Source of the DNA: Agarivorans sp.
GTDB lineage: Bacteria; Pseudomonadota; Gammaproteobacteria; Enterobacterales; Celerinatantimonadaceae
Assembly (NCBI RefSeq): GCF_050295395.1
Contig: NZ_JBNKPP010000092.1
Coordinates: 21,654 to 85,653 of the forward strand
Reading direction: 5' to 3'
DNA length: 64,000 bases
The notes beneath the pieces are model-generated. The model did not search any database. It was not told where the DNA came from and saw only the letters and a program-made list of their open reading frames with translations. This document shows, in pieces, positions 55,445-59,710 of the stretch. Positions within the stretch are counted from its first letter, which is position 1. Each line of letters opens with the position of its first letter. Both the position numbers and the translations under genes were made by a program.

Positions 55445-57832
55445 ATGAGTCCTAAAAAGCCCAGTTCTGCAGCCAAGAAACCCACAAGTAAAGCCGCACC
55501 GCGTAAAAAGGCCGGAGCTAAACCAGCGGCCAAGCGGCGCGCTAGTTCTGCGAAAAATAAGTCTAGTGCTAAGTCTTCATGGAGCAAGCGCCTATGGCAA
55601 TTAAGTTGGAAGCTAGGCGTAGTGGTGATGGTGATGTTACTCGCTTGGGGGGTGCTGCTTGATAGTAAAATCCAGCAGCGTTTTAGCGGCGACAAGTGGC
55701 AGCTTCCTGCGGCGGTGTACGGCCGTGAGTTACAGCTTTATCCGGGGCTGCGTTTAAGCCGCAAAGAGCTGCAAGATGAATTGGCGTTACTTAACTACCG
55801 CAAGGTGAAACGTGCTCGACGTGGCGGCGAATATGCTGTGTCGCAAACCCGTATTGAAGTGGTGCGGCGTCAGTTTGAATTTGCTGACGGCCTAGAGCCC
55901 GAGCTGCCGATGTTGCTCACGTTTAGTCCTTCTCGTCTAACCAAGATCCAACATCGCGATAGTGGTGAAGAACTCGCGCAAACCCGGTTGGACCCAGTAT
56001 TACTAGAGCGGCTTAACGTGAGTGAGCAAGAAGACCGCTTGTTTGTGCCCTTGCAGGACATTCCTGAGAGTCTGAAGAAAGCCTTGATCCTCACCGAAGA
56101 TCGCCAGTTCTATCAACATGATGGTGTCTCGCCCTTGGCGATTGCCCGAGCCTTGGTGGTGAATGTAAAAGCCGGACGCACAGTGCAGGGTGGCAGTACC
56201 ATTACTCAGCAATTGGCTAAAAACTTCTTCCTTACCCGCGAGCGCACGCTGTGGCGTAAGCTGCAAGAGGCCTATATGGCCTTGCTAATCGACTTTCGTT
56301 ATAGCAAAGATGAAATTTTAGAGAGCTATTTTAACGAAGTTTACCTTGGGCAAAATGGCAGCAATGCGGTGCACGGCATTGGCCTTGCCAGTTATTTCTA
56401 CTTTGGGCGTCCGGTTAGTGACTTAAGCGTAGAGCAGGTTGCTTTATTGGTGGCGGTTATCAAGGGGCCATCCTATTACGACCCTTGGCGGCATCAGCAA
56501 CGCGCCTTGAATCGTCGTGATTTAGTGTTGCGTATTTTAGCCGAAGAAGGGGAGCTATCTTCCGAAGCCTATCAGCTGGCGGTGCAACAGCCGTTAGGTT
56601 TGAGTGAGCGTGGTAGCATGGGTTATCAAAAGACCCCTGGATTTGTCTCGTTGGTGAAGCGGGAATTACGCCAGCATGCCAGCAATTGGCGTGAGCATAA
56701 TGGGGTGAAGGTATTTACCACTCTTGATCCTCTATCGCAGCGCCATGCGCAAACCGCGGCTCAGTCGGTATTGGCTGAGTTGGATAAAGGCGCGAAAAAT
56801 CAGCTGCAAACGGCGATGGTGATCAGCGAACGCTATAGTGGCGCGATCCGCGCGTTAATTGGTGGTAGAGAAGAGAATAATCAGGGCTTTAATCGAGCTT
56901 TAGATGCGCGCCGTCCGATCGGCTCTTTAGTCAAACCCTTTGTCTATCTCAGTGCTTTTGAACAGGGCCATCAATTGGGCGAATTATTAGAAAATAGCCC
57001 CTTAAGCGTGCCCTTGGATGACGGCAGCCAGTGGCAACCGCAGAACTACGATAAAACCACAGGTGAAGCTGTTATGTTAGTGGACGCCTTGGCTAACTCT
57101 TTGAATATACCTACGGTTCGGCTCGGCTTAGCACTGGGCTTAGACTCGGTCGTCAATACCTTGCATAAGGCCGGTTTGCAGGAGCAGGTTCAAGCTTATC
57201 CTTCGTTATTGTTAGGCAGCCTCAGTCTTTCTCCTTTCCAAATGGCTCAGCTCTATCAAACCCTAGGCGGGGATGGAGAGTATCGTCCCTTGTATGCAGT
57301 ACAGCAGGTGAATGATGCACATGGCCAGGTTTTATATCGCGCCGACCTGAGCGCCGAGCGACGTTGGTCGGAAATGGGCAACTATTTAACCCTTTATGCA
57401 ATGAGCCAAGTGACGCGCAGCGGCACGGCGCGTTCTTTAAAATGGCGTATTCCCAAGGTGGATTTGGCGGGTAAAACTGGTACCACTAATGATTTGCGTG
57501 ACAGCTGGTATGTGGGAATTGATCAGCGTGAGATTATCACCGTATGGGTGGGACGAGATGATAACAAACCAGCTGGCGTAACGGGATCTTCAGCTGCGCT
57601 GCCGGTGTATGCAGCCTACTTGAAAACCTCTTACCCGCAATCGTTGAGGCCGATGCAACCGGATAATTTAGCCTGGGTGCATTTTGCACAGGCGAGCGGT
57701 CAACCGGTGGCGGTCGGCTGTGGCGAGACTCAATTATTGCCGGCACCTGCTGAGCAAACTAAATTAGCTAAAGGCTGTGTAAAGCAGGCCGCAAGCAAAG
57801 CTAAAACTTGGCTACAAAGCCTATTTAACTAA
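55445..57832 (+). CDS. mrcB: Penicillin-binding protein 1B
   Basis: UB2H domain, EDR.F..H, QGGSTITQQL, GS.VKP, KTGTT; basic low-complexity N-tail. Confidence 0.95.
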   Translation: MSPKKPSSAAKKPTSKAAPRKKAGAKPAAKRRASSAKNKSSAKSSWSKRLWQLSWKLGVVVMVMLLAWGVLLDSKIQQRFSGDKWQLPAAVYGRELQLYPGLRLSRKELQDELALLNYRKVKRARRGGEYAVSQTRIEVVRRQFEFADGLEPELPMLLTFSPSRLTKIQHRDSGEELAQTRLDPVLLERLNVSEQEDRLFVPLQDIPESLKKALILTEDRQFYQHDGVSPLAIARALVVNVKAGRTVQGGSTITQQLAKNFFLTRERTLWRKLQEAYMALLIDFRYSKDEILESYFNEVYLGQNGSNAVHGIGLASYFYFGRPVSDLSVEQVALLVAVIKGPSYYDPWRHQQRALNRRDLVLRILAEEGELSSEAYQLAVQQPLGLSERGSMGYQKTPGFVSLVKRELRQHASNWREHNGVKVFTTLDPLSQRHAQTAAQSVLAELDKGAKNQLQTAMVISERYSGAIRALIGGREENNQGFNRALDARRPIGSLVKPFVYLSAFEQGHQLGELLENSPLSVPLDDGSQWQPQNYDKTTGEAVMLVDALANSLNIPTVRLGLALGLDSVVNTLHKAGLQEQVQAYPSLLLGSLSLSPFQMAQLYQTLGGDGEYRPLYAVQQVNDAHGQVLYRADLSAERRWSEMGNYLTLYAMSQVTRSGTARSLKWRIPKVDLAGKTGTTNDLRDSWYVGIDQREIITVWVGRDDNKPAGVTGSSAALPVYAAYLKTSYPQSLRPMQPDNLAWVHFAQASGQPVAVGCGETQLLPAPAEQTKLAKGCVKQAASKAKTWLQSLFN

Positions 57833-57846
57833 ATTAAGGAATCGAG

Positions 57847-58500
57847 ATGCTACAAGCAAATCAGGCACAAATAATGTTGCAACTGCAAGATAAAATGAAT
57901 GCCAAGGTGAATCCTGAGTGGCTAACCACTCGCTCTCCCTTTTTGCGTGCGGTGATAATAGAAGGGGCCGAGGCTATCGAACACCATGGTTGGAAATGGT
58001 GGAAGAAACAAGATTGTGACTTGGCGCAGTTGCAAATGGAGCTGGTAGATATTTGGCACTTTATTTTGTCAGAGTTACTGCTGCAGGCCGAAGGTGACCA
58101 GCAGCAGGCGCAAGCGGCGATTTTTACTGATATCGACCAGCAGAGTGTGCAGTTTGACGGACAAGATTACCATTTTGCCGAGCTGGGACTACTGCACAAG
58201 CTGGAGTTGTTAATTGGCTTAGCGGCGGCAAAACGCTGTAGTATCGGTTTGTTTTCCGCTCTGCTGGTGGATTGCCAAATGTCGTGGTTGGAGCTGTATC
58301 AGCAATACGTGAGTAAGAACGTATTGAACTTCTTTCGTCAAGACAATGGTTACAAACAAGGAACTTACCGTAAAACTTGGGATGGTCGTGAAGACAATGA
58401 ACATTTAGTGGACTTGATGACGCAATTGGACGCTTCCGCTGACAGTTTTCAGGATGATTTGTACCAAGCGCTACATCAACGTTACGCTGTCTCAAAATAA
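57847..58500 (+). CDS. Dimeric all-alpha dUTPase (dUTPase_2 family)
   Basis: E..E...HHGWKWWK, E.VDIWHF, K..LN.FRQD.GY motifs. Confidence 0.88.
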   Translation: MLQANQAQIMLQLQDKMNAKVNPEWLTTRSPFLRAVIIEGAEAIEHHGWKWWKKQDCDLAQLQMELVDIWHFILSELLLQAEGDQQQAQAAIFTDIDQQSVQFDGQDYHFAELGLLHKLELLIGLAAAKRCSIGLFSALLVDCQMSWLELYQQYVSKNVLNFFRQDNGYKQGTYRKTWDGREDNEHLVDLMTQLDASADSFQDDLYQALHQRYAVSK

Positions 58501-58779: not shown

Positions 58780-58869
58780 ATGGCTTTTTCAAGTTTTCGC
58801 GGTGCTTCAGGTGCAACCTTTTGTCCAAGTAAATCTAACGACCAGCAAACTCGTCGTGAAACAAAGTAA
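58780..58869 (+). CDS. Candidate 29-aa small ORF
   Basis: GAGG RBS, MAFSSFRGASGATFCPSKSNDQQTRRETK*. Confidence 0.4.
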   Translation: MAFSSFRGASGATFCPSKSNDQQTRRETK

Positions 58870-58903
58870 GTGGCTAGCCACGCGGTGCAAAAACCAGTGA
58901 ATA

Positions 58904-58929
58904 AAGCGCTTATCTACAACTAAGCGCTT
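58904..58929. terminator. Shared terminator hairpin between two convergent small transcripts
   Basis: AAGCGCTTA-TCTACAAC-TAAGCGCTT perfect 9-bp stem; TTTATT follows on the minus strand, CTGCTTTTCTT on the plus strand. Confidence 0.7.
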
Positions 58930-58967
58930 CTGCTTTTCTTGATAGACTTTGGCGCAATTGCCTAGGT

Positions 58968-59144
58968 TTAATTGGCTCTAGGCCGATAGCGATCATTGAA
59001 ATGACTCGCCTCATCGATATGTTTTAACTGGCTTAACTCACTGAAATAGAGAGACTTAGCTGAGTTTAGTGGTCGAGGCTGGTAATAACGCTTAGCCCTT
59101 GGCTGAGTGGTAATAAACGTTTCTTTTTGTATGGCTTCAAACAT
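58968..59144 (-). CDS. Unannotated 58-aa protein downstream of a SAM-II-like riboswitch
   Basis: AAGGAG RBS 6 nt before ATG; MFEAIQKETFITTQPRAKRYYQPRPLNSAKSLYFSELSQLKHIDEASHFNDRYRPRAN*; below the ORF-track length cutoff. Confidence 0.7.
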   Translation of the reverse strand: MFEAIQKETFITTQPRAKRYYQPRPLNSAKSLYFSELSQLKHIDEASHFNDRYRPRAN

Positions 59145-59174
59145 ACGAACTCCTTTATCTTAGTTCGCGCGCAG

Positions 59175-59228
59175 GGCGCTTTAGCTGTATTTGTTAGCCG
59201 CCCGCAAGTTGGCAATAAATCGGCGACA
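59175..59228 (-). ncRNA. SAM-II-type riboswitch aptamer
   Basis: GUCGCC-GAUUU-AUUGCCAAC-UUGC-G-GGCGGC-UAACAAAUACA-GCUAAA: P1 stem plus the GAUUU, UUGC and GCUAAA core elements in order. Confidence 0.8.
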
Positions 59229-59233
59229 CCCTT

Positions 59234-59262
59234 AAGATATACTTTAGACGTCTAGATGTCTA
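59234..59262 (-). promoter_or_regulatory. sigma70 promoter driving the riboswitch transcript
   Basis: -35 TAGACA (59262-59257), 17-bp spacer, -10 TATCTT (59239-59234); predicted +1 at the start of P1. Confidence 0.65.
59246..59261. promoter_or_regulatory. MetJ operator (two tandem Met boxes)
   Basis: AGACGTCT (8/8) + AGATGTCT (7/8). Confidence 0.88.
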
Positions 59263-59350: not shown

Positions 59351-59710
59351 ATGTTGCGTTTGTTTACCATGTTAATGGCTTGGCTGGCGGTAGTGCTGGG
59401 AACCATTGGCATCTTTCTTCCCTTATTGCCCACCACACCGTTTATTCTATTGGCGGTGATGCTGTTTTCCCGCAGTTCCCCGCGCTTTGAGGCTTGGTTG
59501 CATAATCACCCTCGGTTTGGCCCGCTGATTAACGATTGGCGCAACCATGGCGTGGTAAGTGTAAAAGCCAAGTGTAGCGCCACCATCATGGTGGGCTTTT
59601 CCTTGGGCTTGATGCTGTGGATGAAGCTACCCCAATTGGCTATGTGGCCAGCTATCGCCTGTTTAGCCGCGGTAATGATATTTTTGTGGACTCGCCCTTC
59701 CCAAAAATAA
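59351..59710 (+). CDS. ybaN: YbaN (DUF454) family inner-membrane protein
   Basis: GIFLPLLPTTPF.LLA, RSSPRF..WL..HP.FGP.I.DW. Confidence 0.9.
   Translation: MLRLFTMLMAWLAVVLGTIGIFLPLLPTTPFILLAVMLFSRSSPRFEAWLHNHPRFGPLINDWRNHGVVSVKAKCSATIMVGFSLGLMLWMKLPQLAMWPAIACLAAVMIFLWTRPSQK

Follow-up and report, generated by a model that had tools for sequence, protein, structure and literature searches.

Why should a gene for a very small protein of no known family lie behind control elements of the kind that govern methionine genes? The question is posed by a 58-codon open reading frame (ORF) on the minus strand (58968..59144) of a 64,000-nucleotide stretch of DNA from Agarivorans sp. (contig NZ_JBNKPP010000092.1), which we call the window. 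The ORF is intact from its ATG start to its stop and encodes MFEAIQKETFITTQPRAKRYYQPRPLNSAKSLYFSELSQLKHIDEASHFNDRYRPRAN; its length is just below the 60-residue cutoff of the ORF list with which the window was first read. A first-pass annotation proposed that this protein is the only output of a unit controlled by methionine and S-adenosylmethionine (SAM). The answer that we reach is as follows. Judged by its conservation, the ORF is a genuine protein-coding gene, neither a chance ORF nor an RNA element, and it is the sole cistron of a predicted riboswitch-bearing transcript. The regulatory parts are of known kinds, a MetJ operator and a SAM-II aptamer, and the product is an orphan family. On balance we favor the view that the locus is a single-gene unit under double SAM control, and that its product, a lineage-restricted and probably disordered micro-protein, modulates methionine/SAM homeostasis.

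The unit is compact. An operator, a promoter-like site, the aptamer, a hairpin that we designate P3, a hairpin covering the Shine-Dalgarno sequence, the ORF and a terminator follow one another in this order within about 360 nt (58904-59262), and they are conserved together. The putative promoter is a sigma-70-like site, TAGACA-17-TATCTT, at 59262..59234 on the minus strand, which a consensus scan found with 9 of 12 matches. Promoter-like sites recur in two orthologous loci of Agarivorans, L006 and L007 (TAGACA-16-GATAAT and TAGACA-17-TAAATT). The transcript start predicted at about 59227, from a promoter consensus match only, is the first base of aptamer helix P1, and the predicted transcript is short, about 320 nt, and self-terminated. 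The Shine-Dalgarno sequence AAGGAG (59150-59155, minus strand) lies 5 nt before the ATG. At the other end, a palindromic hairpin of 9 pairs, AAGCGCTTA-N8-TAAGCGCTT, occupies 58904..58929, 39 nt past the stop codon. The scan scored a terminator there on the plus strand. Because, on the ORF strand, the window has TTTATTCAC after the hairpin and close relatives have TTTTTTAG, a clean T-run, we read the hairpin as a two-way intrinsic terminator that is predicted to serve both the 58-residue gene and a convergent gene of 29 residues. The hairpin is kept in the close relatives, and L006 has an equivalent palindromic terminator about 50 nt past the ORF. The intact 58-codon ORF, its AAGGAG, the promoter-like site and a terminator about 40 nt downstream, all described in the first-pass annotation, are present as it had placed them.

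The first of the two controls is a predicted MetJ operator. Two tandem MetJ boxes, AGACATCT AGACGTCT when read on the minus strand, lie at 59246..59261 between the 58-residue ORF and a divergent ybaN-like gene, and the -35 element TAGACA is inside them. The boxes match the double consensus AGACGTCTAGACGTCT at 15 of 16 positions. This is the sole match in the 64 kb, and a match with one mismatch or fewer was seen in 0 of 100 shuffles. The boxes are kept, with small changes such as AGACATCTAGACGGCC, AGACATCTAGATGGCT and GGACGTCTGGATGTCT, in loci L001-L007, L128, L130 and L132. No metJ gene is present in the 64-kb window; MetJ was found in all the Alteromonadales genomes analyzed by Leyn et al. 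2014 (PMC4239095). Like the MetJ operators of the gammaproteobacterial met regulon, this one consists of two tandem 8-bp boxes near AGACGTCT that overlap a promoter and are conserved at orthologous loci. It differs from them in that its target is no known regulon member, in its position between two divergent genes, and in being paired with a SAM riboswitch on the same gene. On the strength of these matches the predicted operator would control the 58-residue unit, and the methionine/SAM control is very probably real. The premise of the first-pass annotation is thereby supported twice over, by the boxes and by the SAM-II-like aptamer at 59173-59229.

The position of the operator has a second consequence. 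The ybaN-like gene (59351..59710, plus strand; Pfam DUF454, E=8e-37) encodes a membrane protein and is divergent from the 58-residue ORF in all loci. On the plus strand, as read from the window sequence, a CATAAT -10 element lies 17 nt after TCTAAT, which overlaps the met boxes. Because the boxes overlap its likely promoter, the ybaN-like gene may be in the MetJ regulon of the genus, and the operator may be common to both genes, with the ybaN-like gene as a possible second target. The earlier statement that the 58-residue protein is the only output thus holds for the riboswitch transcript and is too strong for the MetJ boxes, which also overlap the likely divergent ybaN-like promoter.

The second control is a SAM-II-type aptamer at 59173..59229 (minus strand) with a core of P1, L1 and P2b. 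P1 pairs GUCGCC (59227-59222) with GGCGGC (59202-59197) over 6 bp and closes the U-rich loop L1, GAUUU (59221-59217). The P2b strands are CUUGC (59208-59204) and GCUAAAG (59185-59179). The combination of GAUUU, CUUGC and GCUAAAG at the correct spacing is an exact match that occurs once in the window, against a chance expectation of 0.01. A U-G pair of P1 becomes C-G in relatives. In a permissive Rfam scan, the SAM_alpha model (SAM-II, RF00521) matched over its full length at minus-strand positions 59161-59236 (E=0.005 on 200 nt), and SAM-V gave no match at E<=10. Across the nine nucleotide variants of the locus that we assembled, the aptamer is nearly invariant, and it is about 93% identical between lineages with saturated synonymous sites. 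This degree of identity, in spite of the saturation, argues that the aptamer is functional.

Further support comes from relatives of the aptamer in other taxa. A scan of one genome per species with the pattern CGATTT..AACTTGC..GCTAAAGC returned at least 120 loci (L008-L127) with at least 104 distinct aptamers. Among the matches listed, relatives with a CGAUUU..AACUUGC..GCUAAAGC core occur in Gemmatimonadaceae, in Halomonas and its relatives, in Lysobacterales, in Betaproteobacteria and in others, and the downstream gene, where recognizable, is often metH, metF, metK or metY. For comparison we aligned 48 of these aptamers, none from the Agarivorans lineage. In this alignment, 92% of cells are paired, against 44% or less in controls with slid partners, and changes on both sides of the helix are seen at nine pairs, namely five of the six P1 pairs and four pseudoknot pairs. 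The P2b columns are invariant in 48/48. Over the wider set, 17 different 5' strands of P1 occur, and on average 5.7/6 of its pairs form. A covariance model built from the 48 aptamers, R1, scores the window element at 65.8 bits (E=8e-14), with the next best site in the window at 11.8 bits; about 40 of the 65.8 bits are circular, since 21 invariant nucleotides picked the training set, and the rest comes from P1, the linker and the spacing. With the Rfam model, one Gemmatimonadaceae copy reaches 48.9 bits, above the gathering score of 36, and several gammaproteobacterial copies score only 27-33 bits, so the Rfam threshold generally misses the gammaproteobacterial branch.

The Agarivorans aptamer departs from its relatives at one helix. 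We count as P2a the pairs between the 4 nt before AACUU and the 4 nt after AAAGC (counted by hand for L132). At least 3/4 of these pairs form in 81/104 of the other aptamers, with covariation. In P2a's place the Agarivorans leaders have the hairpin P3 (59166..59179, minus strand), in which GCGC(C) pairs with G(G)CGC directly after AAAG. The P3 stem is invariant, and its loop takes six forms in the nine variants (CCU, CUAUUAA, UAAG, CAAG, AGCAU and UCUA); the support for P3 is thus conservation, with zero covariation. We conclude from these features that the leader carries a SAM-II-type aptamer of variant structure, lacking P2a and having an added P3 and a detached Shine-Dalgarno hairpin. It shares with SAM-II (Rfam RF00521, SAM_alpha), an H-type pseudoknot, the 6-bp P1, the GAUUU L1, the CUUGC/GCUAAAG P2b, the AACAAAUAC-type linker and the overall spacing. 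In contrast to SAM-II, P2a is reduced to 1-2/4 pairs with the conserved P3 instead, and the Shine-Dalgarno sequence is not in a pseudoknot strand but in a separate hairpin, 24 nt past the last G of GCUAAAG. The host also differs, being a gammaproteobacterium of the MetJ type, as does the target, an orphan micro-protein and not a methionine/SAM enzyme. SAM-V, found before Pelagibacter metY, likewise has a SAM-II-like core without the final 3' pairing, although in its loop and stem sequences the window element resembles SAM-II and not SAM-V. As to distribution, Leyn et al. 2014 found SAM_alpha in Rhizobiales and Rhodobacterales only (PMC4239095), and SAM-II aptamers are stated for Alpha-, Beta- and Gammaproteobacteria elsewhere (PMC2704228).

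How would SAM binding reach the ribosome? Directly upstream of the start codon is a hairpin (59145..59168, minus strand) in which GCGAACU pairs with AGUUCGU. AAGGAG is partly in its loop and partly in its stem, such that half of the Shine-Dalgarno sequence and the whole spacer are held in the hairpin. The minimum-energy fold, the centroid fold and the RNAalifold consensus all contain this hairpin. Both strands are invariant around seven different loops, with one A-C mismatch in L006. A spacer is normally free to vary, and the invariance of this one points to a role in pairing. We propose that, at high SAM, MetJ-SAM would shut the promoter of the 58-residue gene and SAM would lock the aptamer pseudoknot, which would lower translation of the ORF, either by favoring the Shine-Dalgarno-occluding hairpin or through the loss of a single-stranded standby site for the ribosome. 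Since P3 shares 1-2 nt with the Shine-Dalgarno hairpin, a three-part logic or a standby site is suggested. In the three-part variant, a free tail would let P3 form and weaken the Shine-Dalgarno hairpin (ON), and a locked tail would leave the full hairpin in place (OFF). MetJ repression and the lowering of translation at high SAM together imply that the protein would be made at low SAM. By this MetJ logic, and by analogy with SAM-II OFF switches, the most likely situation is that the 58-residue protein is made only when SAM is low. The earlier suggestion that it is made on SAM starvation agrees with both arguments; it needs tempering in that the platform is atypical and the direction of the switch is deduced.

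There is a partial precedent for such an arrangement. The SAM-II riboswitch of Sinorhizobium meliloti metA combines a non-standard effect on translation with SAM-dependent regulation of the promoter (2022, PMC9373788). The window element would be similar in joining an effect on translation that is not simple to SAM-dependent promoter control. In S. meliloti, however, the gene is metA and its Shine-Dalgarno sequence is inside the aptamer; the unit in the window has a separate Shine-Dalgarno sequence and encodes a 58-residue orphan.

Several results weigh against a working SAM-II OFF switch at this locus. In the Rfam scan at gathering thresholds, no family reached threshold anywhere in the window, and SAM_alpha fails that test with 21.4 bits against a gathering score of 36. 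P2a (UGCC against GCCC) forms only 2/4 pairs, and every Agarivorans variant forms 1-2/4. The Shine-Dalgarno sequence is outside the aptamer, and the overlap of P3 with its hairpin by 1-2 nt does not make a clean, mutually exclusive switch. The elements of the platform are all invariant and have zero support from covariation, so that neither platform mechanism can be proven from sequence. Lastly, the whole leader folds no better than shuffled sequence (z = +1.3). We consider an OFF switch the probable direction, an ON switch unlikely, and no response to SAM more unlikely still.

The ON switch is the best of the alternatives, and it includes the case of incoherent control, in which the protein would appear only at intermediate SAM, with MetJ off and the aptamer occupied. 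Under this logic, in the SAM-free leader the 3' strand of P1, the linker or GCUAAAGC would pair with the start codon and codons 2-6, and SAM would free the initiation region. The minimum-energy folds of three variants do pair GGCU..CAAAUA with UGUUUG.AGCC, and in RNAalifold GCUAAAGC is the partner of GUUUGAAGC. For L007 and L128, the duplex exceeds that of 96-100% of control initiation regions in strength, and codons 2-3, UUU and GAA, never vary synonymously in the nine variants. Yet the complementarity is ordinary in 7/9 variants, in which 19-56% of 52 control initiation regions pair equally well, and the linker and the P2b strand alone give average complementarity in all variants. P1 is a strong local helix and would be the first to form during transcription. 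An ON logic would also oppose MetJ, and to our knowledge the SAM-II riboswitches characterized so far turn genes off. We regard this alternative as improbable.

A further alternative is a relic aptamer, decaying and no longer responsive to SAM, which would leave the gene under MetJ-only control or constitutively expressed. The loss of P2a, the sub-threshold Rfam score and the detachment of the Shine-Dalgarno sequence from the aptamer are what such a relic might show. A relic would drift, however, and the core, P3 and the Shine-Dalgarno hairpin are nearly invariant across lineages that have diverged heavily at synonymous sites and in the flanking intergenic DNA. Nor is the loss of P2a an argument against function, because SAM-V, which also lacks the final 3' pairing element, still binds SAM (Meyer et al. 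2009, PMC2704228); SAM-V is thus the precedent for a functional aptamer without P2a. A relic seems to us quite unlikely.

We return to the double SAM control that we favor, and to the nature of its product. The nine variants encode proteins of 56-67 residues; all are syntenic, with the divergent ybaN-like (DUF454) gene on one side and the dUTPase/mrcB part of the locus on the other, and all have the leader. Sequence searches supplied three close homologues, an exhaustive profile search of 1.84 billion representatives two more distant ones, a metagenome scan with the leader pattern one (L128), and synteny with the ybaN-like neighbor two more. The specific leader pattern yielded L128 as its single new locus. 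A protein-pattern scan of GTDB genomes gave 66 matches, of which 0 were confirmed as members; the family was recovered by exact-protein look-ups and ybaN synteny. The variants with names are all from Agarivorans species, where the protein is annotated as 'hypothetical protein'. By this distribution, the family is confined to one genus-level clade, Agarivorans or near relatives. The HemL of the window shares 92% identity with that of Agarivorans sp. Alg241-V36, which places the source of the window in this genus or beside it. The met boxes, aptamer, P3 and Shine-Dalgarno hairpin are present in 9/9 variants, and the ORF is kept wherever the leader is kept.

Conservation of the protein is concentrated at its ends. 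The N-terminus is MFEA in all nine variants, followed by [IVF][QR][KE][EQ], and F-x-D-x-[Y/C]-R-P is invariant near the C-terminus. The linker of about 35 residues between them varies in sequence and in length, always by multiples of three nucleotides, and the reading frame survives length changes of 6, 12 and 18 nt. The Arg/Tyr/Pro-rich stretch singled out in the first-pass annotation as a feature of the N-terminal half does exist, at residues 15-25, but it is inside this non-conserved linker. Nei-Gojobori counts of the proportions of synonymous (pS) and non-synonymous (pN) differences give, for the C-terminal motif, a pS of about 1.0 and a pN of about 0.2, and, for the N-terminus, a pS of 0.35-0.7 and a pN of 0-0.1, so that pN/pS is about 0.2 or lower at both ends. 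In the linker, the closest pair has a pS of 0.68 and a pN of 0.22, and pN/pS climbs towards 1 in more distant pairs. The motif codons swap synonymously (CGG/CGC/AGG/CGT, CCT/CCA/CCC, GAT/GAC and TAT/TAC). These counts indicate strong purifying selection on both ends and fast evolution of the linker. The synonymous excess, together with the frame-keeping length changes, is the pattern expected of a translated protein and not of an RNA element. The first-pass annotation had itself considered a decayed met gene, a leader kept without its ORF and an untranslated frame. What is found is no met fragment, an ORF kept with the leader in 9/9 variants, and substitutions of the protein type.

The same evidence bears on the idea, also raised in the first-pass annotation, that the RNA is the main product and acts in trans, as a small RNA derived from a SAM riboswitch, the ORF being secondary or incidental. 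The transcript is suitably short and self-terminated (about 320 nt), and the SAM-II riboswitches of S. meliloti yield stable small RNAs, although no trans role was shown for them there (PMC9373788). Such a role would leave the conservation at the amino-acid level unexplained: the C-terminal motif is held through many synonymous changes, and the frame is held through the 6-, 12- and 18-nt length changes. We therefore consider a trans-acting RNA very doubtful. The reading of the ORF as a leader or arrest peptide whose translation controls a neighboring gene can be rejected, along with that of a methionine attenuator, since the conserved Arg-Pro motif near the stop only superficially recalls arrest peptides such as TnaC, which ends ...DHRP, while the terminator follows the ORF directly and the next gene is convergent, leaving no downstream gene to control, L128 and L130 have 6-7 residues after the motif, the N-terminus is conserved although arrest peptides do not need it, and the initiator is the sole Met codon.

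The conserved protein that remains resembles nothing in the databases searched. The first-pass annotation saw no likeness to methionine enzymes, and this was confirmed: neither Pfam nor NCBIfam gave a match at E<=1. The exhaustive profile search of the 1.84 billion representatives found nothing beyond the family itself, a PDB search gave no match at E<=10, and the PHROGs and PADLOC searches gave no match. A decayed fragment of a methionine/SAM protein (MetA/K/E/H/F/NIQ/J) is rejected, with zero detectable similarity in the profile searches, as is a phage or defense protein, for which PHROGs, PADLOC and PDB were all empty. A literature search found no paper on the family. AlphaFold2 with the family alignment gave a mean predicted local distance difference test score (pLDDT) of 65, a predicted template modeling score (pTM) of 0.14 and scarcely any secondary structure. 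According to this model, the protein is probably disordered, a free linker connecting its two short conserved motifs. There are also signs of transcription in related strains. Contigs in three estuary metatranscriptomes include the leader and both the N-terminal and the C-terminal part of the ORF, and one contig spans from just beyond the stop codon into the aptamer; against this it must be said that the contigs may stem from DNA carry-over. RNA runs sharing the species label with some of the runs in which this DNA occurs contained zero raw reads from the locus, these being poly-A/oligo-dT libraries, apparently of a eukaryotic host.

What might such a protein do at low SAM? The architecture suggests partner binding through the two motifs, and we propose that the protein would bind its partner or partners in this way and so modulate methionine/SAM homeostasis. 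The ybaN-like membrane protein or methionine/SAM enzymes may be the partners. Against any such assignment, no result singles out a partner, and the first-pass proposal of MetK, MetJ, a methyltransferase or the ribosome received no support from any of the analyses. It is tempting to go further and suggest that the protein is a direct effector of SAM homeostasis, its motifs clamping MetK, MetJ, a major SAM consumer or the ybaN-like protein so as to spare or restore SAM; we offer this more specific idea tentatively, as a possibility that we would not bet on. Bacterial micro-proteins that are induced by starvation and tune the homeostasis of the limiting nutrient are known, as exemplified by MntS and MgtS. 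The likeness is a functional analogy: in each case a single gene, placed under one nutrient's regulator, encodes a protein of fewer than 70 residues. In sequence they are unrelated, and the protein of the window differs in being genus-restricted and predicted to be disordered.

The aptamer relatives in other taxa provide some context for an orphan target. By a crude motif test among the matches listed, about 40/89 related aptamers precede genes other than metH/F/K/Y, which weakens, for this set, the rule invoked in the first-pass annotation that SAM riboswitches almost always control methionine/SAM genes. Eight of the non-met products were tested; 7/8 have no significant Pfam family, and the remaining one is an N-formylglutamate amidohydrolase. 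An ORF of 65-84 residues with a conserved central motif, DDIVRPELRNDAIL, and variable flanks follows a SAM-II-type aptamer in Halomonas, Vreelandella and Billgrantia (L009, L023, L032, L037, L039, L040, L068, L085, L088, L098, L099, L113 and L114). Three of these loci, L039, L113 and L114, have another aptamer some 1.1 kb away, which is followed by a gene for a 225-residue protein without a Pfam family. Kinship of the Agarivorans protein, through 'x-R-P-[R/E]', with the Halomonas DDIVRPELRNDAIL family and with Dechloromonas PEWRPRIL was considered and rejected, the hhalign probability being 0.1%.

The surroundings of the unit are as follows. Convergent with the 58-residue gene, and sharing its terminator, is a second small, unannotated gene at 58781-58870 on the plus strand, which encodes 29 residues (MAFSSFRGASGATFCPSKSNDQQTRRETK), has a GAGG ribosome-binding site and is preceded by a highly conserved region. 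The gene is found also at L006 (3719-3826, minus), L007 (3635-3724, minus) and L130 (1697-1798, plus). The N-terminus of its product, MA[FV]SSFRGASGA[TS]FCPSKS, is conserved across Agarivorans, with 6 synonymous and 2 non-synonymous changes among close relatives, and the protein has no Pfam match. Beyond it lies a gene for a dimeric-type dUTPase (57847-58500, plus strand; Pfam dUTPase_2, E=4e-25), directly after mrcB (55445-57832), which encodes penicillin-binding protein 1b. Some Agarivorans genomes have, between the dUTPase gene and the 58-residue gene, a tandem array of one to seven copies of a gene whose product has 63-65 residues (L133 645-2036, L134 1191-2036, L132 1627-2036, L006 3289-3519 minus, L007 3186-3428 minus). 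The L006 and L007 copies have signal-peptide-like N-termini; the array is absent from the window. The enterobacterial mrcB ... hemL neighborhood is retained in the window with other genes in between. In the window and at other loci, a gene of 92-94 residues with a weak DUF2845 match lies between the ybaN-like gene and hemL, and in one Agarivorans genome (L130, 2882-3427, minus) an isochorismatase-family gene takes its place.

The methionine/SAM regulons are among the best-mapped in bacteria, with a known membership made up of enzymes, transporters and regulators. A dedicated micro-protein that is subject to a SAM-dependent repressor as well as to a SAM riboswitch would be a new kind of regulon output, albeit one whose protein family is restricted to a single genus-level clade. 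At the locus, a single gene is placed under a repressor protein and a riboswitch that are both predicted to respond to SAM; the comparative study of methionine regulons in Proteobacteria describes no gene with both a MetJ operator and a SAM-II element (PMC4239095). The aptamer, as a natural variant of SAM-II, should be useful for learning how small aptamers are wired to expression. The locus is also a pointer to a larger and unexplored set of SAM-II-type elements in Gamma- and Betaproteobacteria, below the Rfam thresholds and before genes of unknown function. That the 58-residue gene is gated twice would point to an important function in Agarivorans. Were the protein to prove a direct effector of SAM homeostasis, no small-protein effector would have been described before it in a methionine/SAM regulon, and its control would lie with a P2a-less SAM-II variant and MetJ acting together.

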